Below, piece by piece: positions 19,021-35,034 of a stretch of 62,522 nt of DNA (positions within the stretch are counted from its first letter, which is position 1; each line of letters starts with the position of its first letter). Both the position numbers and the translations under genes were made by a program. The DNA is from a virus (taxonomy: Duplodnaviria > Caudoviricetes). The stretch is taken from positions 1-62,522 of the IMG/VR virus record IMGVR_UViG_3300032236_001596. The stretch is one strand, 5' to 3'. A model generated the notes under the pieces. The model had not been told where the DNA came from, did no database searches, and worked only from the letters and a program-made list of their open reading frames with translations.

Positions 19021-19023
19021 ATT

Positions 19024-19464: not shown

Positions 19465-19485
19465 AATAATACCATATTTATAACC

Positions 19486-19923
19486 ATGATTAAACTTCTT
19501 GACATATTATTAGAAGATACTAATAAAAAAGATGCATGCTATTATAAAGTTAAAAGTCGTTATAAAGTATGGCCTTCTGCTTACGCATCTGGAGCCCTAG
19601 TTAAATGTCGTAAAGTTGGTGCCGCTAATTGGGGCAACAAAACTAATGAAGATGAAATAGATGAAAGTAATGAAACAGACTATTCTAAAGAACACGAACA
19701 AGGATTACATGGCTGGTTCAGTAGAAGAGGAGGTAAAGAATCAAAAGGTTGGGTAGATTGCAACACATGCAAAACAGATCCTAAAACAGGTAGAAAAAAA
19801 TGTAAATCATGTGGTAGAGAAAAAGGCGAGAATAGAAAATACCCCGCCTGCAGACCAACACCAGCTTCTTGTGGAACACCTAAAAAAGGTTCTAAATGGG
19901 GGAAAAAATCAAATAAAAAATAA
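19486..19923 (+). CDS. basic Cys-rich two-module protein with MIKLLDILLE tag
   Basis: KDACYYKVKSRYKVWPSAYASGALVKCRK module, acidic linker, then GLHGWF..WVDC..YPACRP module. Confidence 0.7.
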   Translation: MIKLLDILLEDTNKKDACYYKVKSRYKVWPSAYASGALVKCRKVGAANWGNKTNEDEIDESNETDYSKEHEQGLHGWFSRRGGKESKGWVDCNTCKTDPKTGRKKCKSCGREKGENRKYPACRPTPASCGTPKKGSKWGKKSNKK

Positions 19924-19931
19924 ATTTTAAT

Positions 19932-19965
19932 AAAGCTTGGAAATCCAAGCTTTTTTTATTATAAT
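19932..19965 (+). terminator. intrinsic terminator overlapping a sigma70-type promoter (TTGGAA-N17-TATAAT)
   Basis: AAAGCTTGG-aaat-CCAAGCTTTTTTT; the -35 lies within the stem; TATAAT at 19960. Confidence 0.7.
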
Positions 19966-19974
19966 ATATGGGTT

Positions 19975-20898
19975 ATGGAAGAAAATCTATTATTATTAAA
20001 TTTTTTAGAAAATAATTTAGGTAAAGCTAAAAAAACAGCTAACCATAATTATGCTTTTATGTGTCCTAATAATTGTCATCCAACTAAACCTAAACTAGAA
20101 ATAAATCTATCAACACATAAATACCAATGTTGGGTTTGTGGAGGACAAAAAGAGGGACTTAAAGGTCAAAACATAGTAAAAATCTTTAAAAAAATAGGAC
20201 TTAGTTCTCATAAACTTTCTGAGTTAAAAAAATTACTAGGATCTTCTTCTATTTTAGAAAATATAGTATCTAATAATGAAGTTGAGTTGCCTAAAGAATT
20301 TATTTCATTATCTACAACACATAAAAATAAGGCATATAATTATATTATTTCTAGAGGTTTAACTAAAGATGATATAATAAAATATAATATTGGTTATTGT
20401 GAAAGTGGTGTTTATGCCAATATGATAATAATACCATCATATGATTGTAACGGTAAACTTAATTATTTTACCGCGAGATCTCTTGATGAGAATGCTTTTA
20501 ATAAATATCGTAATCCAAATATACCTCGCGATATTATACCGTTTGAATTGTATGTAAATTGGAATTTACCTATAATATTGTGTGAAGGACCATTTGATGC
20601 TATGGCTATTAAACGTAATGCTATCCCATTATTTGGAAAAAATATCCAACCGAGCTTAATGAAAAAAATCATTACTTCAGCTGTAAAAAAAATATATATA
20701 GCTTTGGATTCAGATGCTATGAAAAAAGCTGTAAAGTTTGCTGAAGAATTTAAAGATGAAGGTAAAGAAGTATATCTTGTAAACTTAAATTCTAAAGATC
20801 CAAGTGAACTTGGCTTTTTTAACTTTACAGAATTAATACAACAAGTTAAACCATTAACATCATATAACCTACTTGAAACCAAACTATCATTAATATGA
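19975..20898 (+). CDS. dnaG: DNA primase (Zn-binding plus TOPRIM)
   Basis: CP..CH...CWVC zinc motif; LCEGPFDAM; ALDSDA; KDPSE. Confidence 0.9.
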   Translation: MEENLLLLNFLENNLGKAKKTANHNYAFMCPNNCHPTKPKLEINLSTHKYQCWVCGGQKEGLKGQNIVKIFKKIGLSSHKLSELKKLLGSSSILENIVSNNEVELPKEFISLSTTHKNKAYNYIISRGLTKDDIIKYNIGYCESGVYANMIIIPSYDCNGKLNYFTARSLDENAFNKYRNPNIPRDIIPFELYVNWNLPIILCEGPFDAMAIKRNAIPLFGKNIQPSLMKKIITSAVKKIYIALDSDAMKKAVKFAEEFKDEGKEVYLVNLNSKDPSELGFFNFTELIQQVKPLTSYNLLETKLSLI

Positions 20899-21647
20899 GT
20901 AAACCTCAAAGAATATTAGAAATATCAGAAGACCACGCTAAGATAACCTTACCAGACTCAAGATATTATAAAAGAAATGGAAAATATTATCCATCTGTAA
21001 CATATATATTGCAACTGTATCCTAAAGGACCAATATTTGAAGATTGGCTTAAAAAAGTAGGGTATGCTTCTGAATATATAGTTAAAAAAGCAAGCGAAGA
21101 TGGCACTCAAGTTCATAATATGATTGAGTCTTATTTAAATGGAACTGAATTGAAGTTTTTGTCTTCTAAAGGAGAACCACAATATGATCCTGAAATATGG
21201 CAAATGTTTTTAAAATTTGTAGAATTTTGGGAAACACATAAACCAACATTATTAGAAACTGAAGTACATTTATTTTCAGATGAACTTAAAGTAGCAGGCA
21301 CCTGTGATATGATTTGCAAAATTGATGATGAATTGTGGGTAATCGATTTTAAAACATCAAATAGTCTTCACACATCATATGATTTACAAACAGCCTTTTA
21401 TGGAAAAGCATATGAAGAATGTTTTGGAGCCTTACCTACTAGATATGGAATCCTATGGCTTAAATCTCTTAAACGTGGTCCTAAAGCAGGTAAAATACAA
21501 GGAAAAGGATGGGAATTATATGAATCTGAACGTTCATATGAAGAAAATTTGAATTTATTTAAAACTATAAAAACTATATTTGATATAGAGAACCCAAAAG
21601 CTGAACCATCTTTTACCGAATTTAGAACTACAGCTAAAATACAATAA
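20895..21647 (+). CDS. PD-(D/E)XK exonuclease (Cas4/lambda-exonuclease-like)
   Basis: YPSVTYIL, GTQVH, AGTCD, IDFKTS and QTAFY motifs. Confidence 0.85.
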   Translation: MSKPQRILEISEDHAKITLPDSRYYKRNGKYYPSVTYILQLYPKGPIFEDWLKKVGYASEYIVKKASEDGTQVHNMIESYLNGTELKFLSSKGEPQYDPEIWQMFLKFVEFWETHKPTLLETEVHLFSDELKVAGTCDMICKIDDELWVIDFKTSNSLHTSYDLQTAFYGKAYEECFGALPTRYGILWLKSLKRGPKAGKIQGKGWELYESERSYEENLNLFKTIKTIFDIENPKAEPSFTEFRTTAKIQ

Positions 21648-21680
21648 TAATTATATTCAATCTTTAACATATTTATCACC

Positions 21681-23228
21681 ATGAAAGAACATTTTGGATA
21701 TAGAGCAGGTGTTTTCAATCCTTCAGAGCCTGCAGAAACATTAAAAGATAAAGGAATAGGTTTAGTTAGCTCTAAAATAGGTCTTTTAGGTACCGGTTAT
21801 TATTTTATGGGTAATAAAGAAGATGCTATTGCTCTTAAAAATAAACTAAAATATAAAACCTTATCTGAAATAGATCTATCAAAATATAAATTATACAAAC
21901 CATCAGATGCTACTGAATTTTATGATTCTATCAGAGATGTTACATTTTACTTAAACAATCTTACTGCTAATGATGTTGAAGATCCTGAAGTAAAAGAAAA
22001 TATTGAAGATGCTATAGATGCTTTTTCTGAGTATTTTAATATGAGTAAAGAAACCGTCTCAGACATATTTCAAGAATATATATCAGATATTATCAATAGA
22101 CGAAATGGAAATCTCTTATCAAATAGATTATTATCTAGATATGATGGTATAGATTTAACTCATACTATATATGACGATTTTGGTGCTGGGTCTCTTATAT
22201 TTAATGGAAAATTGAAACAAGGAACATACGGAGTAATAGAAGGAGAATCAAATGAAACTCTATCTGAAGCTAAACAAGTAGGTATAATATATCATTATAC
22301 TTTATTTGATTATATGCAAAATATAGTACATGAAAATTTATTAAGATCTGAAAATATTACTAATAAAGACAAAATTATATCATTTACTCGTAACAAGAAT
22401 TTCCATAAATACCAAAGAAAAATTATGGGAACTCAATGTAGACTTGTAATAGATGGAAACAAGCTATCAGAAAAATACAAAATTAACCCAGTTGCAGATA
22501 CTGGTTTCCGCAGATATGGTGGATCTACTGAATCTGAAGAAAGAATAGTTAACGATACTGGTGTGAAAGATATAGACAAATATGTTATATATTATGATTT
22601 ATTTTTAAATGAAATTAAAGATAAGCATGATAAAAAAATATTAGATAGTTTAATAGATGAATTAAAATCTAAAGGTCTAGAATCTAAAATTAGATATTTC
22701 TATAATAATAAAGAAATAACATATGAACACGCTAAAGAATTACTAGCAAAAGGTGTAAAATCTATAAAAGAAGTAAAAGATATTGATATTATTTCTGAAA
22801 TCCAAGCCCTAGAAGATACTAAAAAAATAGATAATCTTAAAAAGATGTTTACAGCGTTATCTAGACTTATGATAAATAAAGGAATGAATATTGAACCATT
22901 ACCTAAAATAATAACTATAAATCATGATGAAGAAAACGCCAATAATTTATTAGGTAGAACAGGTCATTATGATCCCGATAAAAAGGAAATAACCATTTTT
23001 ACTATGGGAAGACATATTATAGATTGTACTAAAACTTTTTGTCATGAAATGATCCATCATGAACAAAATTTAGAAGGTAGATTGGATGATGTAGATACTG
23101 AAGATGTAAATCAAAGTGATTATCTTAAATTGATTGAAGAAGAAGCATATTTAAGAAGTCAAATTATATACCGTGAGTGGGTCGATACTTTAAGAGAAGC
23201 TGAAAAAAATTATAGTTATGAGCAATGA
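21681..23228 (+). CDS. modular protein: two ADP-ribosyltransferase-like modules plus HExxH zincin
   Basis: Module 1 YRAG..GLLGTGYYF..YDGI; module 2 IYHYT..ISFTR..ESEER; module 3 HEMIHHEQ..EEEAY. Confidence 0.55.
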   Translation: MKEHFGYRAGVFNPSEPAETLKDKGIGLVSSKIGLLGTGYYFMGNKEDAIALKNKLKYKTLSEIDLSKYKLYKPSDATEFYDSIRDVTFYLNNLTANDVEDPEVKENIEDAIDAFSEYFNMSKETVSDIFQEYISDIINRRNGNLLSNRLLSRYDGIDLTHTIYDDFGAGSLIFNGKLKQGTYGVIEGESNETLSEAKQVGIIYHYTLFDYMQNIVHENLLRSENITNKDKIISFTRNKNFHKYQRKIMGTQCRLVIDGNKLSEKYKINPVADTGFRRYGGSTESEERIVNDTGVKDIDKYVIYYDLFLNEIKDKHDKKILDSLIDELKSKGLESKIRYFYNNKEITYEHAKELLAKGVKSIKEVKDIDIISEIQALEDTKKIDNLKKMFTALSRLMINKGMNIEPLPKIITINHDEENANNLLGRTGHYDPDKKEITIFTMGRHIIDCTKTFCHEMIHHEQNLEGRLDDVDTEDVNQSDYLKLIEEEAYLRSQIIYREWVDTLREAEKNYSYEQ

Positions 23229-23793
23229 AAATGTATTAAAAAAACAATTTGAACAAAAAGATGTTCAACGTCTCCGAAACATTATACAAAAAAAATATGG
23301 AGATAAAATAGCTACAGGAGTAGGTTATACTAAAAAGCAAGAATTCCATAGTGAAGGTGATGTATGGGAAGAAGATGGTTATAAATGGACTATTAAAAAT
23401 GGTATAAAACAGAATATAACTAAACTAGATAAAGCTAAAAAGTTACATATTTTGCCTTTATTCTGCCCATCATGTAATAAAATAATGAATAATCCTTATG
23501 ATAAAGATTATTACAAAATCCATAAAAAATGTTTTAATTGTGTAGCAGAATTTGAAACCGAACTAAGAAGAACAGGTAAATGGGAAGAATACCAAAAAAG
23601 TATTCATAATTCAGAAATAGATAACTACATAACTACTTTTAAAGTATGGGTAGATGAACAACTAAATACATCTAATGATTCTTTCATCTCTGAACAAGGG
23701 GATAAAGAAACATGGATAGGAGGTCCTAATAAAGACCTAATCCTTAACTCAGTTGATGAAACTGTAAAATATTTAGAAGGATTAAAAAAATAA
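23218..23793 (+). CDS. hypothetical protein with a CxxC...CxxC Zn motif
   Basis: FCPSC...CFNC. Confidence 0.65.
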   Translation: MSNENVLKKQFEQKDVQRLRNIIQKKYGDKIATGVGYTKKQEFHSEGDVWEEDGYKWTIKNGIKQNITKLDKAKKLHILPLFCPSCNKIMNNPYDKDYYKIHKKCFNCVAEFETELRRTGKWEEYQKSIHNSEIDNYITTFKVWVDEQLNTSNDSFISEQGDKETWIGGPNKDLILNSVDETVKYLEGLKK

Positions 23794-23830
23794 CATTTTT
23801 CATATTTATTACCATATTTATACATAAAAC

Positions 23831-24058
23831 ATGAGTGATTTTGATATATACCAGTGGAAAGAAAACATGCTTAAAGAAGAAGCAGATACACCACACAAAA
23901 TGGATCCTAAATTGATATTCGCAATACACAAATACCTAAGTGCGAAACTAGATAAAGTTGCTGAAAAAGAAGGAGACAGAATGTCTTATTTTTCACAAGA
24001 ATATCCTACCGCAACTAGTCTTTACTATGATCTTGAAAAAAACCTAAAACATAAATAA
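23831..24058 (+). CDS. hypothetical protein (MLKEE site)
   Basis: ORF after a tandem pair of ATATTTAT motifs. Confidence 0.6.
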   Translation: MSDFDIYQWKENMLKEEADTPHKMDPKLIFAIHKYLSAKLDKVAEKEGDRMSYFSQEYPTATSLYYDLEKNLKHK

Positions 24059-24649
24059 ATGAAAACTAATTATAAACAAATGAATAGACTAGTAAATTTA
24101 ATAACTGAAGGTTGCTCTTGTGGAGAAAATAAGATGACTATGACTTCATTAAAATCTAAAATTCGTGAAGCTATAATTTCTGAACTTGAAAGTGACTATG
24201 ATGATGAAGATTATGAAAAATCATCTAGAGAAATAGAGTATGCAATGGACATGCATAGTGATGAAAAATGCTATATGGCTGCTATGAAAGCTAAAAAATA
24301 TGGTTTAACTCATGAAGAAGCTATTGAAAAATTAAAAAACATGGGCTTGAGTTATAAAGAAGCATGTGACATAGTTTATGATGTTTATGAATTCAAAGGA
24401 GAACCAATATACGAAAAAAAAGATGAATCTTCTGAAGAAGAAGATAAAGATATAGAATTTGAAGATGATGATACAGACCATACTGATTCTAAAACTGAAG
24501 AACTTAGTAAAGAAGAACAAGAACTTCAAATGCATTTAAATAAAGCTCTTGAAGTTTCTCGTAAAATAGGTGATAAAAAATTAGAAAACCAAATAGGAAA
24601 TACAATAACGTTCTTCACTCGTTCTTATGTATCTGACCATAAAGATTAA
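24059..24649 (+). CDS. acidic putative internal head protein
   Basis: LITE and LKSKIREAIISE motifs; E/D-rich linkers. Confidence 0.55.
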   Translation: MKTNYKQMNRLVNLITEGCSCGENKMTMTSLKSKIREAIISELESDYDDEDYEKSSREIEYAMDMHSDEKCYMAAMKAKKYGLTHEEAIEKLKNMGLSYKEACDIVYDVYEFKGEPIYEKKDESSEEEDKDIEFEDDDTDHTDSKTEELSKEEQELQMHLNKALEVSRKIGDKKLENQIGNTITFFTRSYVSDHKD

Positions 24650-24674
24650 TTAATAAAATATAAAAATAAAAATT

Positions 24675-24863
24675 ATGACTAAAGAAATTTTTGAATCAAT
24701 CGAAGCTACTTTTGAAAAACTTAAAAAAGAACACGCTCAAACTACTAAAAAAGCACACAGCGCTGCTCGTAAAACTACAGGATCTCTTAAAAAGCTTTTA
24801 GGTGATTATAAAAAAGCATCTGTAGCTGAAAGTAAAATCAAAACAGCAACCGATGGAAAGTAA
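24675..24863 (+). CDS. histone H1-like (Hc1-type) small basic protein
   Basis: KKAHSAARK...LKKLLGDYKKASVAE resembles Hc1-type proteins. Confidence 0.5.
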   Translation: MTKEIFESIEATFEKLKKEHAQTTKKAHSAARKTTGSLKKLLGDYKKASVAESKIKTATDGK

Positions 24864-24963
24864 ATCAAATTTGAAATCTAAAAAAAGGGGAAGAGCTAAA
24901 AAGCTAAAAGCTAAAAAAGCTAGAAAAACTAAACCTTATAGAGGACAAGGTAGAAATAAATAA
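24853..24963 (+). CDS. 36-aa highly basic peptide MESKSNLKSKKRGRAKKLKAKKARKTKPYRGQGRNK, not in ORF track
   Basis: Translated by hand; overlaps the upstream stop; K/R-rich. Confidence 0.6.
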   Translation: MESKSNLKSKKRGRAKKLKAKKARKTKPYRGQGRNK

Positions 24964-24976
24964 AAAATTTAATACA

Positions 24977-25798
24977 TTGAACTCAAAAGAAATAATAAAG
25001 CAAAAGCAAATATTCCATGGTATGTTGAAAAACAAACGCGGAATGGTTGATAAATATGGAGCTAATGCTGAAAAGGTTGCTTATGGTAAATCAGTAAAAA
25101 TAGCGCAAAAAGAAAATAAAATGAATCATAAACACGACAGCAGACTAAAAGAAATAGTTAAAAAATCATTATCTACCTCTATTAAAGAAAAAACTAAAGA
25201 AGTAGAAGAAAATCTAGGTCATGCCCTTCCAGAAATGGAAACAGAAACTGTAAACACTGTTAAATCCGAATTATATAAACTATATCAAAATGCTATAGCT
25301 TTATATAAATTGATAGAAAAAAATGAAAAAACAGATAAACTACCTAATTTCCCAGCTTGGTGGCAAACCAAAATAGCTTTAGCTAATGATTCTGTAGAAA
25401 GTGCTAAATCATATATTGAATTTAACATTAATGAACCTAAAATAGATACAAAAATCATAGATGCTGCAGATAATGCTACTGTTGATGAAGGCTTACCTAA
25501 AGGATATTTCAAAAAGAGATTTGGCATTGGAGGTGATGAAGAAGAATTAGAAGAAAAACATCTCACACCAGCTGAACTTAAGAAAAAAGAAGAAATTGTT
25601 AAATCAATGAAAAAAACCTTCAAAGGTCCTAAACCTGAAATGTATGCTATTGCAACTAAACAAGCAAAAAGATTAGCAGAAGGTAAACCATGGGATGAAA
25701 TGATTGCTAAGCTTGAAAAGCAAGGTCATTCAAGAAAAGAAGCTGAAAAAATTGCTGGGGCTATCAATGCTGCTTTTGTTGGAAAATATAAAAAATAA
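24977..25798 (+). CDS. modular putative internal head protein (TTG start)
   Basis: Short modules separated by IKE, VDE, LEE and LAE. Confidence 0.6.
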   Translation: MNSKEIIKQKQIFHGMLKNKRGMVDKYGANAEKVAYGKSVKIAQKENKMNHKHDSRLKEIVKKSLSTSIKEKTKEVEENLGHALPEMETETVNTVKSELYKLYQNAIALYKLIEKNEKTDKLPNFPAWWQTKIALANDSVESAKSYIEFNINEPKIDTKIIDAADNATVDEGLPKGYFKKRFGIGGDEEELEEKHLTPAELKKKEEIVKSMKKTFKGPKPEMYAIATKQAKRLAEGKPWDEMIAKLEKQGHSRKEAEKIAGAINAAFVGKYKK

Positions 25799-25800
25799 TA

Positions 25801-26283
25801 ATGAAACTATCTGAGTTAAAAGATAAAATCAAACGATTAGCTAAAAATGTATATAAGAATTACAAACATTCTGAAGCATCAGCAATCCAATATGATGAAC
25901 TAACTAGATTCCCTGAATTAAAAGTAGTAATAGTTGATCTCCTTACTCAAGATTTTGATGCTTTCTTATCATCTATAGATTGGGTAGCTCCACGCCCTAC
26001 TACTTTTCGTATTAATTTAAAAAACGATCAATGTTTTTATTTAATATGGAATTTAAGAAGTTGGGTTGCTCAAGTTGAAGGTAAAAAATACTATTTACTT
26101 AATTTACCTGAAGAAGAAAGAGCTGTCGATGCTATTGCTCGCATATTAAGATATGGCACTAAAGAACAGGCTACACAAGAACTGCCTAGTGATTTCGCTA
26201 AAGAACCAGAAGAAAAACCTAAAAAAATAAAGCCTGAGAAAAAAGAACCAGAAGGTCCTTTAAAACCTCAAACTGAAGTTTAA
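25801..26283 (+). CDS. hypothetical protein (MKLSELKDKIK tag)
   Basis: ORF carrying the shared N-terminal style. Confidence 0.6.
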   Translation: MKLSELKDKIKRLAKNVYKNYKHSEASAIQYDELTRFPELKVVIVDLLTQDFDAFLSSIDWVAPRPTTFRINLKNDQCFYLIWNLRSWVAQVEGKKYYLLNLPEEERAVDAIARILRYGTKEQATQELPSDFAKEPEEKPKKIKPEKKEPEGPLKPQTEV

Positions 26284-26287
26284 AAGG

Positions 26288-26316
26288 TTTGGATATCTAA
26301 GTATCTTTACTATATT
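26288..26316 (+). promoter_or_regulatory. sigma70-type early promoter (TTGGAT-N16-TATATT)
   Basis: Same motif class, one base shorter spacer. Confidence 0.5.
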
Positions 26317-26348
26317 GTATTGTTAGATTTAATAACTTATAAAACGTT

Positions 26349-27095: not shown

Positions 27096-27157
27096 TACAT
27101 ATTCTCTATTATTTTTGATATAAAGCGTTAATATGTATACTCAAACAAACAACATTT

Positions 27158-27706
27158 ATGGAAAATAATAGATTAAAAAGAATAATTATTGAAGCTGTCC
27201 GTCAAATACTATCTGAAAAAGAAATTACGGACCCTGAATTACAAACCCAAATTAAAGAATTTGCAGAACTATCTAACCAGATAGATAGAATCACAAATGA
27301 ACTTAAAAAATTAAAAGATAAATATGATTCTATAGAATCAATATTAACTCCTATATTAGATGAACTAGCCGAAACTAATGATAAAGCCTTAGAAGTAGAA
27401 GACATCTTAGTTACTATAAAGAAAAAAGGTTTTGAACGCACATCATATGCTTATAAAGAAGCATTTGAATGGCTTAAAACAAAAGTTAACCCAGCCTTAA
27501 GAGCAATAGTAGAAGAAGCTCTTGAAAAAACAAAGAAAACTAGCAAAATAGCTTCATCAATTGCTGTCCAAAAAACATTATCTGAATCCAAAATGACTGG
27601 CATAGTATCAAAACTAAAAGGATATTGGAATAGCTTTTTGAGAGTATTGAATGTAAACAATAAAAAATTATCCAATGCTATCAACAGTTTCAAAGAAAAA
27701 GCTTAA
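27158..27706 (+). CDS. coiled-coil protein with LKRIIIEAVRQILSE tag
   Basis: ORF after ATATGTAT; carries the tag. Confidence 0.6.
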   Translation: MENNRLKRIIIEAVRQILSEKEITDPELQTQIKEFAELSNQIDRITNELKKLKDKYDSIESILTPILDELAETNDKALEVEDILVTIKKKGFERTSYAYKEAFEWLKTKVNPALRAIVEEALEKTKKTSKIASSIAVQKTLSESKMTGIVSKLKGYWNSFLRVLNVNNKKLSNAINSFKEKA

Positions 27707-27869
27707 TCATTTTGAGAAGGTTCTATATAAAAATATTTTAACTTATTGGAGAAATCTTTGCAAAGAAAACATAGATTTTAATTCTGAAAAACATAAGTTA
27801 GTTATAGAACATTTAGGTTTAAATGATGAAGACTATAGTATTTTAAAACAAATATATAAACAACAATAA
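27675..27869 (+). CDS. hypothetical protein
   Basis: Fills the gap and its stop overlaps the next ATG, but it overlaps the upstream gene by 32 nt. Confidence 0.4.
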   Translation: MLSTVSKKKLNHFEKVLYKNILTYWRNLCKENIDFNSEKHKLVIEHLGLNDEDYSILKQIYKQQ

Positions 27870-28852
27870 TGTGTAGCTGCGGATGTGGAACTTGTAATGA
27901 TAAACCTAAAGCACCAATTCTCAATGAGAATGTAGCTCCTTCATCTATATTGTCTGAAGGATTAAAATATCATGTAAAGAATAATAAACCTCTTGTTGAA
28001 CAAACCTACAGAGCAGGATCAACTTCCTACTTCAATTTATGGTCTGAAGCTAGAGCTTTATATTCTCGTGGTATAATAGACGTATCAAATGATGACCTTG
28101 AAATAATATCTGAAACTAATCTCGGCGAATTTGGAATATATGAAGGTATAAAAGTACCTTTAGATTTCCCTATAATACAAGAAGGACTAATTGATCATTC
28201 TCAATATGAATTACAACAAGCTGGACTATTTGGCGCTGATTCTGATTATAATGGTATGATAGGAAAGGCTGTCTTAGAACTTATCAAAACATTTTCCAGC
28301 CAAGGACATAGTGGATTTAGCGCACAATGGGTAAAAGAATTATTTAATAAATTATCTAATTTTGAAAACCTAACCCCAATAACACCTAACCCAGAGGAAT
28401 GGACAAACGTATCAGATATACCTTCTGAACCACTATGGCAGAACAAAAGAAACCCGGCAACATTTTCTAAAGATGGAGGAAAAACTTGGTATAATCTAGA
28501 TGATAAATCTATAAAAGAAAGTATCAAACAAGCTTTAGCACAACATAAACAAATTATATCTGAATCAAAAAAACACCCAGCATTAAATAAGCCTCATCGT
28601 GGTGGTGCTGGTGGGAAAAAATATGTAGTATATGTTAAAGATCCTAAAACAAAACGTATAAAGAAAATTAGTTTTGGTGATTCTGGTGGTTTGAGAGAAA
28701 AAATAAATGATCCTAAAGCAAGACATGCCTTTGCTAAAAGACATAGATGTGGAGAAGGAGAACCTAAAACTAGTGCTAAATATTGGTCATGTAGACTTCC
28801 TCGCTATGCACATCTATTAGGTCTTAAAACTACGTTTAGTGGGTATTGGTAA
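27869..28852 (+). CDS. three-module putative internal head protein
   Basis: Modules bounded by ILNE/LSE, IQE and IKE/IISE; C-terminal KKYVVYV..ISFGD..RHRC..SAKYWSC basic module. Confidence 0.65.
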   Translation: MCSCGCGTCNDKPKAPILNENVAPSSILSEGLKYHVKNNKPLVEQTYRAGSTSYFNLWSEARALYSRGIIDVSNDDLEIISETNLGEFGIYEGIKVPLDFPIIQEGLIDHSQYELQQAGLFGADSDYNGMIGKAVLELIKTFSSQGHSGFSAQWVKELFNKLSNFENLTPITPNPEEWTNVSDIPSEPLWQNKRNPATFSKDGGKTWYNLDDKSIKESIKQALAQHKQIISESKKHPALNKPHRGGAGGKKYVVYVKDPKTKRIKKISFGDSGGLREKINDPKARHAFAKRHRCGEGEPKTSAKYWSCRLPRYAHLLGLKTTFSGYW

Positions 28853-28872
28853 TAAATAAAACGAAATAAAAC

Positions 28873-29619
28873 ATGAAATTAATTTACGAAAATAAAGTAT
28901 CACATAAAAACAAACCGCTAGTTTTAGAAAATGTAAAACAAGCTAAACAATATGTTGAGCAGGGAAAATTATCTCAAGAAGATTTTGAAACTTTAGTTAA
29001 AATCGATCCAAGTAAACAGAAAAAATATGTTGGATGGATGGCTAAAATATGGATAAAAGATAAACCTGATATAGATGATCTTAGAAATAAAATAGAAGAG
29101 TTTAATACACTTTTAGAAAAAGGAAAAACCAAAACTAAAGATATTAATAATTTTAAATCATTTTCAGACCTTGAAAATGAAGTAGAAGAAATAAATAAAA
29201 GAGGCGAAGGAATATCTGTAAAAGAATTAGAAAATGACTATGAAACTATAATAGACAACTCAGATATCCTAATAATGTGTCCCCACACTCATGAAGCTTC
29301 TAGAAAATTAGGTTTAACTAAATTCGCTTTTAGAGATTGTGGAGATGGAGGAAAAGACTCAGCATGGTGTACTACATATAAAGCTCCTGATCATTTTAAT
29401 GATTATTACTATAACAATAATGTAACTTTTTATTATATAAAAATAAAATCTGATAAACTATTAGAAAAATTAAAAGAGGAATTTCCTACAAAATGGCAAC
29501 AGCTACAAATAGTTGCATTAGCTGTATTAAAAGATGGTGACATAGATGGATATGATGGTCTTGACAAGCAAATGAGCTCTTCAGATATAAAAAAATATAG
29601 AAGCATAATAGGAATATGA
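28873..29619 (+). CDS. hypothetical protein with a WCT motif (PcfJ-like?)
   Basis: HEASRKLG...SAWCTT...HFNDYY; N-terminal LVLE site. Confidence 0.55.
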   Translation: MKLIYENKVSHKNKPLVLENVKQAKQYVEQGKLSQEDFETLVKIDPSKQKKYVGWMAKIWIKDKPDIDDLRNKIEEFNTLLEKGKTKTKDINNFKSFSDLENEVEEINKRGEGISVKELENDYETIIDNSDILIMCPHTHEASRKLGLTKFAFRDCGDGGKDSAWCTTYKAPDHFNDYYYNNNVTFYYIKIKSDKLLEKLKEEFPTKWQQLQIVALAVLKDGDIDGYDGLDKQMSSSDIKKYRSIIGI

Positions 29620-30395
29620 TTAAACTGCTTGACATATTATTGGAAGATGAAAATATTCTTATCCCTAGACGTTCTAAAGAAGAACGCTCTAAGAACCATA
29701 TTGTAGTTATCCAAAAGAAAATTCAACAATACATTAAAGATGGAAGCAAAGGTAATTTAGATTTATCTAACACACCGATACAATCCTTACCAGATAATTT
29801 AAAGGTTGGAGGTGGTTTGAATTTAAGAAATACACAAATAAAATCATTACCGGATAATTTAACTGTTGGAGGTAATTTATATTTAAGTAACACACAAATA
29901 CAATCATTACCAGATAATTTAACTGTTGTTGGAGGTAGTTTAGATTTATCTAATACACCAATAAAATCACTTCCAAACAATTTAACTGTTGTTGGAGGTA
30001 GTTTAGATTTATCTAATACACCAATACAATCTTTACCTAATAATTTAACTGTTGAAGATGGTTTGCATTTAAGCGGCACACCAATACAATCATTACCAAA
30101 TGATCTAAAAGTTGGAGGTAGTTTATATTTAAGTAACACACAAATACAATCATTACCAGATAATTTAACTGTTAGAGGTAATTTGGATTTATCTAATACA
30201 CCAATACAATCATTACCAGATGATTTAACTGTTGAAGGTGCTTTATGGTTAAACAATACACAAATACAATCATTACCAGATAATTTAACTGTTGGACGTA
30301 GCTTGAATTTAAGAAATACACCAATATCTAAAAAATATACTAAAGAAGAAATTAAAAAAATGGTACCTGGTGTTAAGGGTGATATTTATATTTAA
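29616..30395 (+). CDS. leucine-rich-repeat protein with MIKLLDILLE tag
   Basis: Nine full and one partial repeat of GxLxLSNTPIQSLPDNLTV. Confidence 0.85.
   Translation: MIKLLDILLEDENILIPRRSKEERSKNHIVVIQKKIQQYIKDGSKGNLDLSNTPIQSLPDNLKVGGGLNLRNTQIKSLPDNLTVGGNLYLSNTQIQSLPDNLTVVGGSLDLSNTPIKSLPNNLTVVGGSLDLSNTPIQSLPNNLTVEDGLHLSGTPIQSLPNDLKVGGSLYLSNTQIQSLPDNLTVRGNLDLSNTPIQSLPDDLTVEGALWLNNTQIQSLPDNLTVGRSLNLRNTPISKKYTKEEIKKMVPGVKGDIYI
29751..30326 (+). repeat. tandem 60/63-bp coding repeats (LRR units)
   Basis: Recurrent ATACAATCATTACCAGATAATTTAACTGTTG-like units, in frame. Confidence 0.9.
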
Positions 30396-30427
30396 ACATA
30401 TCTTTTAACATATTTATATATAAAAAC

Positions 30428-30793
30428 ATGGAAAACTTTATCAAATTAGTATCATATTTATTTCATTCAAGAACTCAAGCTCATGTGTTTCACTTACAAA
30501 CACCTTCGTTTGCAGAACATAAAGCTTTAAATGAATATTATGATGAAATAATAGAACTAGTAGATGGTCTTATAGAAAGCTACCAAGGAAAATATGGTAT
30601 AGTAAAAGGATATTCTAACTTTGCTTTAATGGAGTATACCGATAAACAACAAGTAATCACATATTTTGATGCTTTATACAAAACTATTGATTCCTTACGC
30701 GAAGAATTACCAGATTCATACATTCAAAACCAAATAGATACTATAACTCAACTAGTACAATCAACATTATATAAACTTAAAAACTTAAATTAA
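30428..30793 (+). CDS. ferritin/Dps-like four-helix protein (DUF5856-like)
   Basis: HVFHLQT.SFAEHKALNEYY...DGLIESYQGKYG. Confidence 0.7.
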   Translation: MENFIKLVSYLFHSRTQAHVFHLQTPSFAEHKALNEYYDEIIELVDGLIESYQGKYGIVKGYSNFALMEYTDKQQVITYFDALYKTIDSLREELPDSYIQNQIDTITQLVQSTLYKLKNLN

Positions 30794-30803
30794 TTATAAG
30801 AAT

Positions 30804-31154
30804 ATGATTAAGCTAGTAGACGTACTATTAAAAGAAGAAAGTTCTAACTATAAAATTGAAGGTATATTAATATCTGACCTTACCCGCAGAAATCAAGCCG
30901 ACATTTTATCAGACATTCGTTCTCTTAAAGGAGTAACCATTGTAAGAGCCAAAGAGTACGACCCAGAAGAACAAAAATATGAAAATAAACATTATTATTC
31001 ATATCTTACTATAAAAGTGGACCCACATCCATTTATAGGTACTGGTGGATTTGGTCAAGATCAAGTTAATGAGCTTATAGCTAATGTGAAAAAAATAAAA
31101 GGTGTTAAAACCTTTAAACAAACTGGTAATGTTCAAAGAATAAAAACCACATAA
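30804..31154 (+). CDS. hypothetical protein with MIKLVDVLLKEE tag
   Basis: Carries the tag; DIRSLKGVTIV. Confidence 0.65.
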   Translation: MIKLVDVLLKEESSNYKIEGILISDLTRRNQADILSDIRSLKGVTIVRAKEYDPEEQKYENKHYYSYLTIKVDPHPFIGTGGFGQDQVNELIANVKKIKGVKTFKQTGNVQRIKTT

Positions 31155-31435
31155 TGAAACCATATAATGATATAGAAACAGCAAACAACTATATTGTTAG
31201 AGAGTTTGATGAGAATATAGATCCTATTGAACTAATGTGGCATAGAGATTTAAATGAAAGAACAATTACTATTTTAGAAGGTGAAGGATGGAAATTTCAA
31301 TTAGACAATCAACTTCCTATCTCACTGAACAAAAATGACACTATATTTATACCTGCATTAACATATCATAGAGTAATAAAAGGTAACACAAAACTAAAAC
31401 TAAAAATAAATGAAAGATTTAAAAGCGATAATTAA
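31154..31435 (+). CDS. cupin-fold protein
   Basis: WHRD...EGEGW...IPALTYHRVIKG. Confidence 0.65.
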   Translation: MKPYNDIETANNYIVREFDENIDPIELMWHRDLNERTITILEGEGWKFQLDNQLPISLNKNDTIFIPALTYHRVIKGNTKLKLKINERFKSDN

Positions 31436-31796
31436 AAAGATGATTGTAGAAACATTAGAAGAAGCACCAACAGATCATCATAAACTTGAAAAAGATGAAA
31501 TAGGTAAATTTTATGTTGTAACAAAACCATCTAAACCTAAAGAAAGTATAATCCATGAATTAAATCTCATGGAATTTGCTAAAAAAATCAAATCAGGAGA
31601 ATTAGATGAAAGTAAAATGGTTTGTGTATATGAAAAATCAGGATCAGCTAAAACTAAGTCTAAAGAACTTATGGATGAAATTGAAAGCGAACTTGAGGAA
31701 CTTAAAACACACATGGATGAATATCGTTCTAAAAAAGCTGAAATAGAAGAAAAGAAACAAAAAGCTAAAGAAATTATTAAAAAGTATAAAAAATAA
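31410..31796 (+). CDS. hypothetical protein with MKDLKAIIKKMIVETLEE tag
   Basis: Carries the tag; C-terminal coiled coil. Confidence 0.6.
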   Translation: MKDLKAIIKKMIVETLEEAPTDHHKLEKDEIGKFYVVTKPSKPKESIIHELNLMEFAKKIKSGELDESKMVCVYEKSGSAKTKSKELMDEIESELEELKTHMDEYRSKKAEIEEKKQKAKEIIKKYKK

Positions 31797-31859
31797 ATAA
31801 AAACATATAGATAGATTCATAGCCTATCGAAAAATAAACCCCTAAAGCCTTGCAGCTGT

Positions 31860-31897
31860 GGCGCAATTCCTTAAAAAAGGATTGCGCCTCTTTTTTT
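31860..31897 (+). terminator. intrinsic terminator
   Basis: GGCGCAAT(T)CCTT-aaaa-AAGGATTGCGCC followed by a T7 tract. Confidence 0.75.
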
Positions 31898-31904
31898 AAA
31901 TATA

Positions 31905-31934
31905 TTTGGCTTTAAAAAAAATTTTTAGTATATA
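31905..31934 (+). promoter_or_regulatory. sigma70-type early promoter (TTGGCT-N17-TATATA)
   Basis: Same motif class. Confidence 0.55.
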
Positions 31935-31957
31935 TAAATGTTTAATAAAATATAAAA

Positions 31958-33271
31958 ATGAAAGAAGAAAAAATTGTAATAGTTGGAAGCGGTGTTGCTG
32001 GAATAAATGCTGCTACTAAATTAGTTGATAATGGTTATCCTGGTCATTTAATAACAATAATAGACAAAGGTAAAGATCCTTATAATCGTAAACCTGAAGA
32101 AGTAATGGAAGGTTTTGCAGGTGCTGGAGGTTTTTCTGATGGTAAATTAACATTTCATACCTCTATAGGTGGTCAATTATCAAAATATTGTGGTGAAGAT
32201 AAAGCCTATGACTTAATGGATCAAACTATAGAAATATGGAAACGATTCCATCCAGACCCATCTAAAATGATGTATTCAGACCCTCAATCGGAACCGGATT
32301 TTATTAAACCTTATTTTGATCTTAAACTATTCCCAGTATATCATATAGGTACAGATTACTTACATGAAATAGGAAAAACATGGTATCAATATTTGGTTAA
32401 TGCTGGTGTTAAATTTTTATGGAGTGTAGAGGTAACCTCTATAGATTTTAAAAATAATACTGTAAGCGGAAAATCAGTATATAGTGGATTTTCTTATGAT
32501 AGATCATATGATAAACTTATATTTGCTGTAGGAAAATCAGGCATAGACTTTGCACAGCAATTATCAAACCAGTATAATCTACCTACAGAACCAAAATCAG
32601 TTCAAATTGGAGTACGTTTTGAAGCTCCCCAAAAATATTTTCAAAAATTGATAGAAATATCATATGATTTTAAACTGTACCAAAAATATGATAACGTATC
32701 TGTACGTTCATTTTGTACAAACAATAATGCAGCTTATGTAGCTCCTGAAATTACATATGGAGATGTTACTTATAATGGTCATGCTAAGAAAGGTGAAGAA
32801 CATCGCAATGATATGACTAATTTTGGTATATTAATGGAAATTAAAGGTATTGAAAATCCATTTGAATGGAGTAGAAATGTTATAAAAAAATGTCAAGTAA
32901 ACGGAAAAGGATTATATTATTCTCCATCTAGAAAACCATCTTTAACATCAGAAGGAACTGAGATGCCATGCCATCAAATAGACTCACTAAAAATATTTGA
33001 AGAAATATACGAAGACTATTCTCCCTATATCCTCAATTTTATAGGAGATATGCAAACCATATTCCCAGACATAAAAGATGATTGGGGAATGTATATAGGT
33101 GAAGTAAAATATTTATCTCCTGAACCTTTAGTAAATTATAACAATTTAAGTCTTACAGAATATCCAAATGTTTATTTTGCTGGAGATGCTTTATCTGCTA
33201 GAGGCATCACAGTAGCGGGTAGTCAAGGATTATATATAGCTGAGAGTATTATTAAAGAAGTTAATACTTAA
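31958..33271 (+). CDS. FAD-dependent oxidoreductase (uncharacterised flavoprotein family)
   Basis: IVIVGSGVAG Rossmann motif; GFAGAGGFSDGKL; IGVRFE; RSFCTN; YFAGD. Confidence 0.85.
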   Translation: MKEEKIVIVGSGVAGINAATKLVDNGYPGHLITIIDKGKDPYNRKPEEVMEGFAGAGGFSDGKLTFHTSIGGQLSKYCGEDKAYDLMDQTIEIWKRFHPDPSKMMYSDPQSEPDFIKPYFDLKLFPVYHIGTDYLHEIGKTWYQYLVNAGVKFLWSVEVTSIDFKNNTVSGKSVYSGFSYDRSYDKLIFAVGKSGIDFAQQLSNQYNLPTEPKSVQIGVRFEAPQKYFQKLIEISYDFKLYQKYDNVSVRSFCTNNNAAYVAPEITYGDVTYNGHAKKGEEHRNDMTNFGILMEIKGIENPFEWSRNVIKKCQVNGKGLYYSPSRKPSLTSEGTEMPCHQIDSLKIFEEIYEDYSPYILNFIGDMQTIFPDIKDDWGMYIGEVKYLSPEPLVNYNNLSLTEYPNVYFAGDALSARGITVAGSQGLYIAESIIKEVNT

Positions 33272-33306
33272 TAATAAGTATATAATATTTATACTAAAGC
33301 ATAATT

Positions 33307-33528
33307 ATGATCAAACTAACAAGCATACTATTAGAAGATATAGAAGTAAAAAATCCTGATTATTTTCTAGAACTATTGAAAATAAATAAATTTCCTGAAT
33401 CTACAAACAATATTATAAAAAATATAGTGAAAAGTGTTAAAGCTAGAGGAAATAAAGCTACTGCTAAAGAATATGATATGTTGCAAAGATTAAAATCTGG
33501 AAATTTTAAATTTTCATCTAAAAATTAA
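33307..33528 (+). CDS. small protein with MIKLTSILLED tag
   Basis: Carries the tag; ATATTTAT upstream. Confidence 0.6.
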   Translation: MIKLTSILLEDIEVKNPDYFLELLKINKFPESTNNIIKNIVKSVKARGNKATAKEYDMLQRLKSGNFKFSSKN

Positions 33529-33533
33529 TTTTA

Positions 33534-33563
33534 TTTGGTTTTTTAAGAAAAAATTATTATATT
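33534..33563 (+). promoter_or_regulatory. sigma70-type early promoter (TTGGTT-N17-TATATT)
   Basis: Same motif class. Confidence 0.6.
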
Positions 33564-33579
33564 TCAAAATAAAAAAGTT

Positions 33580-33849
33580 ATGGAAGAAAAATTTTACGAA
33601 ACTAAGACGATAAGAAAAGATGGAGCTCTTCATCATCTTTACAAAACCGAAAAAGACTCTGGTTGGAAATACCATAATTTTGAAGGTCCTGCAATAGAGC
33701 CAATAGATAAAAATTCTAAATTTAAAAAAGAATATTATCTCTATGGTATAAAATATTCTATGGCTAGCTTTTATGAAATGGTTAAAGATAGAGATGGAGT
33801 TCCTTTCCATAAAACCGCCTTATTTAAACAAGCTAATAATAGAGCATAA
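33580..33849 (+). CDS. hypothetical protein (H..EGPAIE..YYLYG motif)
   Basis: Paralog of the next gene. Confidence 0.65.
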   Translation: MEEKFYETKTIRKDGALHHLYKTEKDSGWKYHNFEGPAIEPIDKNSKFKKEYYLYGIKYSMASFYEMVKDRDGVPFHKTALFKQANNRA

Positions 33850-34106
33850 TGGCTAAGAAAAAATTATTTGAACAAAAGGTTATAAAAGTTCAAGGAGCAA
33901 AGCACCACCTAATAAAACTAACAACAGAAAATACATGGAAACTTCACAGATATGGAGGTCCAGCAGTAGAACCTGTAGATAAGAGTTGTAAATTAAAGAA
34001 AGCTTATTATCTTTATGGAATAGAATATACTTTTGAAAAGTATGAAGAAGCTCTTAAATGTGAAGATGAGAGAGAAAAAGAATTAAATGAACAAATTGAA
34101 GAATAA
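33849..34106 (+). CDS. hypothetical protein (LHRYGGPAVE..YYLYG motif)
   Basis: Paralog of the previous gene. Confidence 0.65.
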   Translation: MAKKKLFEQKVIKVQGAKHHLIKLTTENTWKLHRYGGPAVEPVDKSCKLKKAYYLYGIEYTFEKYEEALKCEDEREKELNEQIEE

Positions 34107-34120
34107 AATAAAATAAATAT

Positions 34121-34648
34121 ATGGCTCGTATAGGACTTTGTGGAACTGTTTCTTGTGGTAAAACTACATTAGTTAATGCGCTTAAAGATTTACCTCAATT
34201 TGAAGGATATAAACATTCAACTGAGCGTAGTAAATATTTACGTGATTTAGGTATTCCATTAAATACTGATTCTACTGTATTAGGACAATTTATGTTTTTA
34301 GCAGAAAGAACAAGTGAATTATTTAATGAAAATTTAATTACAGATAGAACTATATGGGATGTATGTGCATTCACTTTGAGTGCTAAGTCTATAGATTGGC
34401 CTGATAAGGAAAAAATAATTGTGTCATCAACATTATTGATGCCTTTTTATGATATTGTTTTTTATGTGTCTCCTGAAGGGGTTCCTATTGAAGATAATGG
34501 TGTAAGAACTATAGATGCTGATTATAGGGATAAAATAGATATGGTTATTAGAGAATTACTTAAAGAATATCCACCTAAAAAATTGGTAACTATTAGTGGA
34601 AGTGTTGAGGATAGAATTAAACAAATTACAGAAGCAATATCTTTATAA
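34121..34648 (+). CDS. P-loop NTPase/kinase (NadR/Ttd14 AAA_28-like)
   Basis: GTVSCGKTT, ITDRT, YDIVFY and EDNGVR motifs. Confidence 0.8.
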   Translation: MARIGLCGTVSCGKTTLVNALKDLPQFEGYKHSTERSKYLRDLGIPLNTDSTVLGQFMFLAERTSELFNENLITDRTIWDVCAFTLSAKSIDWPDKEKIIVSSTLLMPFYDIVFYVSPEGVPIEDNGVRTIDADYRDKIDMVIRELLKEYPPKKLVTISGSVEDRIKQITEAISL

Positions 34649-34671
34649 TATTTATATCCAAAATAACACAA

Positions 34672-35034
34672 GTGAAATCATCTGAATTAAAAAAGAAAAT
34701 TAAAGAAGGGATATTATCTGCATTATCTGAAGAAACATATGCTGGAGTAAATGCTGTAAATTCTTTAAAAAAAGATACTAAATTTAATTCATTAAGTAGC
34801 AACTCCAAAACTACAGCTATTAAGCAACTTCAGTCTGGAGACACAGTTACTCTTGAACAAGAAGAAGATGCTAACAGCAATCCTGTTGTTAAAAGAAAAA
34901 TTGACGACACAGATAAGGAAATTAAAATGCTTACTAATAAGTTGAAAAAAGCTAAAGAATTTGAAAAAGAAAAAATATCTAGTCGTATAAATAAACTTAA
35001 CAAAATAAAAAAAGAACTTGAACATCTCCTTTGA
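34672..35034 (+). CDS. hypothetical protein with SELKKKIKEGILSALSEE tag (GTG start)
   Basis: Carries the tag; ATATTTAT upstream. Confidence 0.6.
   Translation: MKSSELKKKIKEGILSALSEETYAGVNAVNSLKKDTKFNSLSSNSKTTAIKQLQSGDTVTLEQEEDANSNPVVKRKIDDTDKEIKMLTNKLKKAKEFEKEKISSRINKLNKIKKELEHLL

Follow-up and report, generated by a model that had tools for sequence, protein, structure and literature searches.

Four open reading frames (ORFs) in the virus record IMGVR_UViG_3300032236_001596 encode unrelated proteins that begin with nearly the same peptide, which raises the question as to what such a leader does and whether it could direct its carriers into the phage head in the manner of the capsid-targeting sequence (CTS) of phage T4. 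The window analysed here is the entire record, 62,522 bases of linear DNA with ~29% G+C that CheckV estimates to be ~39% complete, and nearly all of its genes lie on the + strand. Its sequence identifies it as part of the genome of a distant T4-like phage. Among cultured phages the nearest relative is Flavobacterium phage vB_FspM_immuto (160 kb, hereafter immuto), with a capsid protein that is 57% identical and a syntenic head module, and the hosts are probably Flavobacteriia and not enterobacteria; a megablast search with positions 19000-35100 against 50,697 phage records gave no nucleotide-level match. Our analysis shows a leader that is strictly N-terminal, is kept at the level of the peptide and stands on many unrelated proteins within one T4-like clade possessing T4-type head machinery. 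By analogy with T4 this MIKLxDILxE leader is probably a capsid-targeting propeptide that is cut after L-x-E by a prohead protease of the S77 family.

A short leader on unrelated proteins

The four leaders are MIKLLDILLED (ORF starting at 19486), MIKLLDILLED (29616), MIKLVDVLLKEE (30804) and MIKLTSILLED (33307), all on the + strand, with the window-wide consensus M-I-K-L-x-[DS]-[IV]-L-L-[EK]-[DE] and with an [LI]-x-E at residues 8-10 or 9-11 in every case. A degenerate DNA pattern for the peptide has four forward matches in the record, none in reverse and none in a control read backwards. The likeness between the genes at the DNA level begins at the ATG and ends at codon 11-12, the DNA upstream is not conserved and the proteins are unrelated by BLAST after residue 12. 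The leaders of 19486 and 29616 are identical at 31 of 33 nucleotides (nt) and both differences are synonymous, while the remaining pairs share 24-25 of 33. In order to score the leader we used a position-specific scoring matrix (PSSM) built from one representative of each of 20 families, with the four window genes included, so that their own scores of 27-33 bits are partly circular; the next best of the 75 ORF N-termini in the window scores -10 bits and the best of 19,036 internal positions 12.4 bits. This gap together with the pattern controls makes the core observation solid and far beyond chance, and we regard it as practically certain that the leader is real and portable. The initial annotation had drawn attention to the near-identical peptide on four unrelated ORFs, to the closeness and synonymous differences of the first pair and to the [LI]-x-E endings, and all of this is borne out by the sequences, the pattern scan, the PSSM and the BLAST comparison.

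The leader recurs well beyond the window. Pattern scans returned at least 118 and 55 stretches from viral contigs and at least 120 from metagenome contigs, and with an antisense artefact removed these contain at least 165 distinct leader-bearing ORFs of at least 50 amino acids (aa); allowing two mismatches in the pattern scan gave no additional matches. When trimmed of their first 12 residues the tagged ORFs fall into at least 65 BLAST families, two of which (families 27 and 65, one an internal match and the other a 51-aa ORF) were dropped as due to chance to leave at least 63. Across 135 loci a score of at least 10 bits is reached by 50 of 1,574 ORF N-termini compared with 9 of 317,310 internal positions, and those nine are mostly miscalled starts or the antisense artefact. 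A check that the initial annotation had proposed, recurrence of the tag on varied domains in related genomes, thus came out in its favour. Within 596 Gb of prokaryote genomes only five stretches match the pattern and just one of them opens a genuine ORF, located on a contig of 3.2 kb in the bin of a Yeosuana (Flavobacteriaceae) metagenome-assembled genome. Recurrence on many families together with near-absence from prokaryotes indicates that the leader is phage-specific and portable.

The artefact deserves description as a trap for any pattern-based census of such tags. Most matches of the first viral scan and some of those in the later scans belonged to a recurrent family of short ORFs (4-87 aa) in which the motif is followed by 'DLLV', and in the pooled viral-contig loci 94 of 135 pattern matches were set aside, comprising this family and any ORF below 60 aa; the family was filtered with a regular expression and one member that escaped it (L128) was dropped too. 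In all three loci examined it lies antisense inside the gene of a ~570-aa Rad50-like SMC_N/AAA_23 ATPase, and at L006, L012, L059 and many other loci a conserved SMC_N/AAA_23 stretch of T4-like marine phages reads in antisense as MIK[FL]Q[DN]VL[FL]EDLLV, mimicking the leader pattern.

The 24 viral records examined that truly bear the tag are all fragments (10-59% complete, implied genomes of ~130-195 kb). The protease family PF03420 is present in 12 of them, 11 above the curated cut-off, and two larger fragments without it, G001 and G020, have 20 and 14 genes in common with immuto or the window. The exact leader pattern is found in none of the five isolates immuto, HTVC008M, P-SSM2, Mel-JY01 and RM378, and the PSSM picks out one variant in immuto, MIKLIDLLTES on gp231. 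Taken together the record survey, the shared genes and the isolate scans indicate that the leader is characteristic of a single uncultured clade of distant T4-like phages. The most widespread tagged family, a 118-aa protein at locus L028 homologous to the product of 30804, had no match by tblastn in the 50,697 phage records and so is not tied to any cultured phage.

Constraint falls on the peptide. Among 67 family representatives fixed residues are written in varying codons, Leu4 in six, Ile2 in three and Leu8 in five, which points to selection on the peptide as the initial annotation had supposed. In 42 leaders M1, I2 and L8 are invariant, K3, L4 and I7 are at least 90% conserved and residues 5, 6 and 9 are variable, figures that are partly circular because the scans and the PSSM threshold demanded M-I-[KR] and most of the motif.

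Of the four mature products predicted in the window three are small and basic (7-15 kDa, isoelectric point (pI) 9.3-9.8). That of 19486 is predicted at 15.2 kDa and pI 9.6 with 8 Cys and is like the viral DUF5872, with PHROG matches that cover residues 10-60 only. The product of 30804, ~118 aa with a ferredoxin-like fold, belongs to the most widespread tagged family, and an AlphaFold2 model of this family (20 sequences, mean predicted local distance difference test (pLDDT) score 68.7) has residues 1-13 below a pLDDT of 50, a helix at 4-9 and a fold that begins at residue 15, which fits a detachable leader. A Foldseek search of the model against the PDB gave no hits at E <= 0.001, the matches being generic ferredoxin-like or ACT-like folds, and matches in the ESM Atlas were viral families of unknown function only. 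The start of 29616, the gene of a leucine-rich-repeat (LRR) protein, overlaps the stop of an ORF at 28873-29619 (+) in an ATGA, and in the related protein P0005 a homologue of the product of that ORF is fused before the LRR domain with a single MIKL-type leader in front.

Head machinery, cleavage rules and proposed cargo

In T4 the CTS is carried by IPI, IPII, IPIII and Alt and is removed by gp21 (Mullaney and Black 1996, as cited in PMC9026906, PMC3012670 and PMC5694885). According to the review text of PMC9026906 gp21 cleaves after L/I-X-E, the first 10 residues of IPIII are enough for incorporation into the head, residues 4 and 7 are the main determinants of targeting and residues 8 and 10 those of processing, a leader with Asp at position 10 is still targeted but no longer processed, and the internal proteins are small basic proteins. 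The T4 cleavage positions used here are those of review text, as is the loss of 65 residues from gp23 (PMC5694885), a cut that falls in the T4 sequence between LTE65 and A. In the T4 record the N-termini are MKTYQEFIAE for IPII and IPIII, MKTFKEF... for IPI, MAKINELLRE for gp24 and MELITE... for Alt, and gp22 has IAE at residues 7-9. The gp24 N-terminus is presumably cut after Glu10, which is our own reading of it.

The conserved L4 and I7 of the leader place hydrophobic residues where the T4 targeting determinants lie (Tyr4 and Phe7 in IPIII), a correspondence in position that is partly forced by the way in which leaders were collected, and the terminal Leu-x-Glu retains a site of the cleavage type at residues 8 and 10, where cleavage is predicted. 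Among 67 leaders 54 have [LI]8-x-E10, a further 10 have the site shifted to [LIF]9-x-E11 and three have neither. All 10 leaders with Lys10 have Glu11 and none has Asp, compared with 8 Glu and 24 Asp at position 11 of leaders with Glu10 (Fisher p = 3e-5), although the K10/E11 variants may share one origin and so not be independent. MIKL.DIL.E and MKTYQEFIAE are too short and too different to be joined as homologues, having in common M1, E10 and like residues at 4, 6, 7 and 8, and we regard the leader as a variant that probably works like the CTS and not as the same sequence family.

The window contains the parts of a T4-type head, a gp21-family protease, a portal, a putative scaffold core and a gp23 shell, of which the scaffold is assigned by position and conservation. 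The protease (41829-42446) is presumed by analogy to be the enzyme that removes the leader; its His75 and Ser128/129 alignment columns are invariant in comparison with T4 gp21 and immuto, and it has LIE at residues 5-7 of its own sequence where T4 gp21 has LIE at 7-9. The scaffold candidate (42645-43838), which had no Pfam family match, has conserved homologues at the equivalent position in the related records G009, G010, G018 and G021 and in immuto; the leader is presumed to dock onto it. In the capsid protein the maturation site is predicted between V57-N58-E59 and S60 with E59 aligned to E65 of T4 gp23, and all 12 clade capsid proteins compared have [VLI]-x-E at the aligned site. From 39348 through the capsid gene five of six genes have [LI]-x-E in their first 14 residues where 14% would be expected from its internal frequency. 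The aligned capsid sites and these N-termini suggest that the specificity of the protease is conserved with T4. A complex prediction of the protease with 36-residue leaders, run without controls, scored 0.00 against a mark of 0.32 and carries no weight for or against cleavage.

In the mechanism that we propose the M-I-K-L-x-[DNS]-I-L-x-E leader would form a short amphipathic helix late in infection, and the hydrophobic face made by L4, I7 and L8 would dock the cargo onto the scaffolding core of the assembling prohead. Following closure of the shell the S77 protease, which is also expected to process the capsid protein behind V-N-E59, would cut after the Glu of I-L-x-E, and the mature cargo would stay in the head and enter the host with the DNA. 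In the window this cargo would consist of the Cys-rich basic DUF5872-like protein, the LRR protein, the small ferredoxin-fold protein and a basic protein of 63 residues.

The kinds of protein that bear the leader were surveyed with a Pfam scan of 61 tagged family representatives, an estimated ~45 of which have no family. Two tagged families in relatives (L231 and L037) match PF03496 at 36.4 and 32.2 bits against a cut-off of 23.4, the family to which T4 Alt itself belongs (5.8e-36, 124 bits), so that ADP-ribosyltransferases of the Alt family stand behind the leader in relatives only and none is tagged in the window. The relatives also have one tagged Tox-ART-HYD1 family, four kinds of tagged cell-wall hydrolase (Phage_lysozyme2 + LysM, VanY, Hydrolase_2 and Phage_lysozyme) and tagged Fe/Mn superoxide dismutase (SOD), NUDIX, RimK-like ATP-grasp and Zeta-toxin-like kinase proteins. 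The proposal of the initial annotation, a portable T4-like tag removed after [LI]-x-E, has survived all the tests that we ran on head genes, families, positions and cargo, with packaging argued by analogy.

An untagged protein of the window touches on this cargo. The 515-aa product of 21681-23228 (+) matches at residues 192-272 residues 6-90 of the tagged Tox-ART-HYD1-like protein of L053 (2e-18), the match beginning ETLSEAKQVG compared with EILNESKQVG in L053, and the domain is preceded by an apparent leader tail with L-S-E. Judged from the alignment it may be a cargo fusion in which a cleavage site lies inside the protein; its gene starts 4 nt after a copy of the promoter-like motif described below.

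Gene order, promoter-like motif and further leaders

Coordinates of the features discussed are collected in Table 1.

Table 1. Leader-bearing genes, promoter-like motifs and head genes of the window
Feature	Coordinates	Strand	Remarks
Class-2 helix leader	6560..6907	+	preceded by promoter-like motif
Promoter-like ATATTTAT core	19474..19481	+	4 nt before 19486
Tagged gene 1	19486..19923	+	leader residues 1-10/11 (nt 19486-19518), 31.1 bits
Class-2 helix motif	24059..24649	+	near residue 30 of longest ORF; N-terminal only if an internal ATG is the true start
Class-2 helix leader gene	27158..27706	+	N-terminal helix pattern
Tagged gene 2, leucine-rich-repeat protein	29616..30395	+	LRR_4 27.5 bits; leader 32.8 bits
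Promoter-like core	30410..30417	+	before 30428, the gene preceding 30804
Tagged gene 3, K10/E11 leader variant	30804..31154	+	leader 27.2 bits
Class-2 helix leader gene	31410..31796	+	N-terminal helix pattern
Promoter-like core	33285..33292	+	14 nt before 33307
Tagged gene 4, 73 aa	33307..33528	+	leader 28.5 bits; predicted mature product 7.3 kDa (63 residues), pI 9.8
Class-2 helix leader gene, GTG start	34672..35034	+	N-terminal helix pattern
Large terminase, T4 type	35635..37206	+	PF03237 2.3e-11
T4-like portal (gp20)	37423..39315	+	PF07230 6e-66
Two head-module genes	40202..40666, 40678..41817	+	in T4 gp67/gp68 slot; both with [LI]-x-E inside first 14 residues
gp21-family prohead serine protease	41829..42446	+	Pfam PF03420 Peptidase_S77 8.1e-29, 101 bits against cut-off 27
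Scaffold candidate	42645..43838	+	between protease and capsid gene; LKE at residues 6-8
gp23-type major capsid protein	43871..45526	+	PF07068 7.7e-74

Among the relatives G010 has a tagged ADP-ribosyltransferase between protease and scaffold, G021 a tagged gene directly after the protease, G018 tagged genes between terminase and portal and G009 a tagged gene among the neck and tail genes; across the 135 loci tagged genes often form adjacent arrays. The initial annotation had regarded the ~16 kb from 19486 to 35034 in the window as a cargo cassette, and here it went too far. Only 4 of ~28 genes in the interval are tagged, the region is syntenic with the primase-to-terminase region of immuto and its untagged genes include a SegE-like homing endonuclease, a primase, a PD-(D/E)XK nuclease, an RNase H-like exonuclease, a Tad3-domain protein, DUF5856, an FAD oxidoreductase and an AAA_28 NTPase. 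Nor is the set much larger than that of T4, as had been supposed. A search without prior assumptions for genes that share an N-terminus (6 or more of 10 residues identical) returned the four MIKL genes in the window and four genes with MKT[YF].EF in T4, namely IPI, IPII, IPIII and a 54-aa ORF at 18966-19130, and found none in HTVC008M; the window set is thus T4-sized and it is the clade-wide repertoire that is large. The T4 ORF (NC_000866, - strand) starts MKTFKEFIKED, a fourth CTS-like N-terminus.

Two of the untagged genes are of interest in their own right. The homing endonuclease (19024-19464, +) is of the SegE GIY-YIG type (PF19835 2.4e-27) and lies directly upstream of tagged gene 1, a second GIY-YIG-like ORF is located at 59692-60405 with homologues in G001, and such mobile endonucleases may help to shuffle the tagged region. 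The Tad3 protein (27869-28852, +, 327 aa) has its domain, that of a type I Thoeris inhibitor, at residues 107-218 (PF25185 8.6e-33) flanked by an N-terminus rich in Cys and a basic C-terminal part with a match to phrog_7595, and is a candidate anti-defence gene.

A CATATTTATA-like motif with a ATATTTAT core, often [CA]ATATTTATA, occurs at 28 sites on the + strand (including 19474, 21669, 30410, 33285, 39326, 47165, 52749 and 57536) and at 11 on the - strand. It stands 4-38 nt before many gene starts, those of the structural genes 39348, 47897, 52795, 54951 and 57870 among them, and is plausible as the late promoter of the clade; its TATTTATA part we take to be the reverse complement of the T4 late-promoter consensus. 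In related loci 14 of 124 tagged genes have the motif in the 45 nt before their start, compared with 84 of 1,739 others (odds ratio 2.5, p = 0.005), a weak link outside the window. That most tagged genes follow a late promoter, as first proposed, holds directly for two of the four, 19486 and 33307; 29616 has no such motif upstream, and in the case of 30804 the motif stands before the preceding gene, 30428.

The initial annotation had also listed looser forms of the tag at 6560, 24059, 25801, 27158, 31410 and 34672. Five of these share a longer helix pattern and none fits the tag PSSM, so that they appear to be a real N-terminal leader class and a separate one (class 2) as opposed to a loose version of the MIKL tag; 25801 fits the class-2 pattern poorly. 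A PSSM made from the five window helices finds its matches 9-57 times more frequently at N-termini than internally across 135 independent loci. The leader of 6560 is followed at residues 22-29 by LKDILLEA, the best internal match to the tag in the window (12.4 bits), and similar helices begin small genes located between the portal and protease genes of G009, G018, G021 and immuto.

Further leaders emerged from a census of the best 120 of 2,896 homologues of the LRR protein of 29616. Among these 120 the MIKL-type leader starts 57 proteins and one more after a longer called start, 6 have a class-2 helix (MKKSELKQIIKE-like), 7 have MKLxxL[YFI], 3 are of the ..FD..KWLVEN or FNLTKYL type, 1 has MKKQILSE... 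and 45 have another leader or none, these last mostly with a different LRR architecture that has a C-terminal domain. The leaders join one conserved PRRSxEER core and most end in Glu shortly before it, and the presence of several types on one core indicates that the leader classes are interchangeable. In the fused or tandem LRR proteins P0001, P0003, P0053, P0067 and P0069 a leader or remnant is retained between the units, for example ...DIYL-DILFEN-KILVPRRS in P0003 and an internal MKKSELKEMIRE in P0053. Such remnants may serve as linkers cut by the protease or may reflect gene fusion and nothing more. Pairs and sets of different genes with common N-termini of up to at least 22 residues also occur in immuto (MENFDLKKFLVEN..., MKKQILSEQF.RMQ.LAGIITE and MKKS[EQ]L..[IL]I[KR]...; positions 1803/118632, 25061/111675 and 81525/102294/102880/113188), and two of these leader types are also found on LRR homologues.

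A wider proposal, which we put forward tentatively as a possibility, is that this clade, probably of Flavobacteriia phages, sorts more than 60 families into the capsid for injection through a code of at least five interchangeable leaders, with ADP-ribosyltransferases, cell-wall hydrolases, SOD, NUDIX, LRR proteins and numerous uncharacterised proteins among the families so sorted. These would be the MIKLxDILxE, MKKSELKxIIKE-type helix, MKLxQLYKQVKEE, ..FD..KWLVEN and MKKQILSE types, and the internal leaders of fused genes would be protease-cut linkers.

Alternatives and known systems

Several points weigh against a role in capsid targeting and injection. Core binding, cleavage, packaging and ejection are each argued by analogy with T4. 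The leader is not demonstrably homologous to the CTS, with which it overlaps in M1, an acidic residue 6, the hydrophobic residues 4, 7 and 8 and E10, and the conservation of its residues is in part a product of how it was searched for. [LI]-x-E is common in a window proteome rich in K, E, I and L (1.2% of positions), is missing from 3 of the 67 leaders altogether and in its shifted form may trace to a single event. The closest isolate, immuto, has a single variant copy and HTVC008M, P-SSM2, Mel-JY01 and RM378 have none. The four tagged genes of the window lie outside the head module among replication and accessory genes, the motif of the structural genes precedes just 14 of 124 tagged genes, the tagged SOD, NUDIX and ATP-grasp ligase look like ordinary cytoplasmic auxiliary enzymes as opposed to injected effectors, and the occurrence of several leader classes in one genome, that of immuto, means that their destinations may differ.

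Much of this would suit a docking or regulatory peptide unrelated to the head, which might bind a chaperone, a host factor or a hub, serve as a degron or act as a pro-peptide that times activity. Many tagged proteins, the Zeta-toxin-like kinase among them, are enzymes able to act in the cytoplasm, and the position of the window genes, the sparse promoter motif and at least five interchangeable leader classes on one LRR core that co-occur in one genome could be understood if the classes served different destinations. We nevertheless consider this explanation unlikely since it leaves unaccounted for the match to CTS positions 4, 7, 8 and 10, the restoration of L-x-E in the Lys10 variants, the confinement of the leader to a clade with a gp21-type protease, the tagged genes between protease and scaffold and the tagged Alt-family ADP-ribosyltransferases and four kinds of cell-wall hydrolase. 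That the leader is a signal peptide or anchors its carriers in the membrane was also considered and rejected, since it is acidic, lacks a long hydrophobic run and is modelled as a short helix.

It is slightly less probable again that the leader does reach the prohead and marks components of the assembly core which are degraded or expelled at maturation like T4 gp67 and gp68, and so are not injected. Tagged and class-2 genes do occupy the gp67/gp68 slot in the head modules of relatives, and the review text of PMC9026906 has most T4 core proteins cut to fragments that exit the head. ADP-ribosyltransferases, lysozymes, VanY, SOD and NUDIX proteins however have no obvious role in a scaffold, and T4 Alt, of the same PF03496 family as the tagged ones, is packaged and ejected.

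We think it very unlikely that the 33 shared nt have no role as a peptide and are a recombination handle or the scar left by recent duplication where cassettes meet. The near-identity of 19486 and 29616, the frequent adjacent arrays and the leader remnant between the tandem LRR units of P0003 would be expected of such a handle, but the likeness starts exactly at the ATG and stops at codon 11-12, the residues are kept across families while the codons vary (Leu4 alone uses six), the peptide occurs internally in fused proteins only and the other window pairs agree at just 24-25 of 33 nt. Least probable of all is a signal for translation initiation, or one at the level of the mRNA, in the opening codons of genes with high expression, since for all that the leader is A+T-rich, starts ATG ATH AAR and in several copies follows the promoter-like motif by 4-14 nt, the constraint falls on residues and not bases, structural genes behind the same motif lack the leader and positions 8-11 follow the rule of a protease site.

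Proteins injected with phage DNA act before phage gene expression and in T4 include an anti-restriction protein and a modifier of RNA polymerase, and they are hard to find as virion proteomics of a cultured phage is normally required. If the leader is indeed a capsid-targeting propeptide then lists of candidate injected proteins could be drawn up directly from metagenome sequence for a large group of marine phages, most of them with uncultured hosts, and ~45 families with no known function would stand out as likely effectors of the first minutes of infection. Phage engineering outside E. coli would gain a second natural tag for packaging proteins, and the principle of the T4 CTS would prove old and general among phages with a gp21 protease as opposed to a peculiarity of the T-even phages. 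Were the code of five leaders to hold as well, the injected proteome of uncultivated phages would be readable from sequence alone.

We found no published report of the MIKL leader in a literature search with subscription journals outside its scope, the capsid-targeting papers listed being on T4, P1, P22, SPN3US, other giant and Vi01-like phages. Among the matches listed, the phrase 'capsid targeting sequence' was absent from papers on cyanophages, pelagiphages, Flavobacterium phages, T4-like phages and marine phages.

The encapsulation peptides of bacterial microcompartments and the cargo-loading peptides of encapsulins are likewise short amphipathic helices that dock diverse enzymes inside shells. 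They differ in their shells and partners, are not removed by a protease and do not deliver to another cell. The class-2 helix leaders of the window resemble the N-terminal peptides of microcompartments in general pattern, which we offer as an analogy of mechanism only.

Among phages, the N-terminal signal of P1 DarB sends a defence-countering protein into a myovirus head and the first 30 residues suffice for a reporter (PMC9024508). DarB is one protein of the ordered Dar system, for which PMC9024508 reports no separate scaffold, whereas here one short leader stands on many families in a phage with a T4-type protease and a scaffold candidate. In phiKZ, 201phi2-1 and SPN3US head-internal proteins are cut after Glu by a diverged gp21 homologue and their propeptides are thought to target the prohead, according to the passages on these phages in PMC5694885 and PMC9026906. 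As described in the same two sources those propeptides are mostly over 100 residues long, are not a single short peptide in common and use the motif S/A-x-E, in contrast to the shared 10 residues and [LI]-x-E found here.

The closest parallel is T4 itself. In both a ~10-residue N-terminal peptide with hydrophobic residues at 4 and 7, [LI] at 8 and Glu at 10 is carried by unrelated proteins, the genome encodes gp20, a gp21-family protease, a scaffold and gp23, and the products are often small and basic (three of four in the window), with an ADP-ribosyltransferase of the Pfam family of Alt among the cargo of relatives. The sequences are different, MIKLxDILxE here and MKTYQEFIAE in T4, and packaging and cleavage in this clade are proposed by analogy. 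The repertoire is far wider than that of T4 with at least 63 families that include cell-wall hydrolases, SOD, NUDIX and LRR proteins, and in this clade at least four further leader classes have been swapped onto one LRR core.

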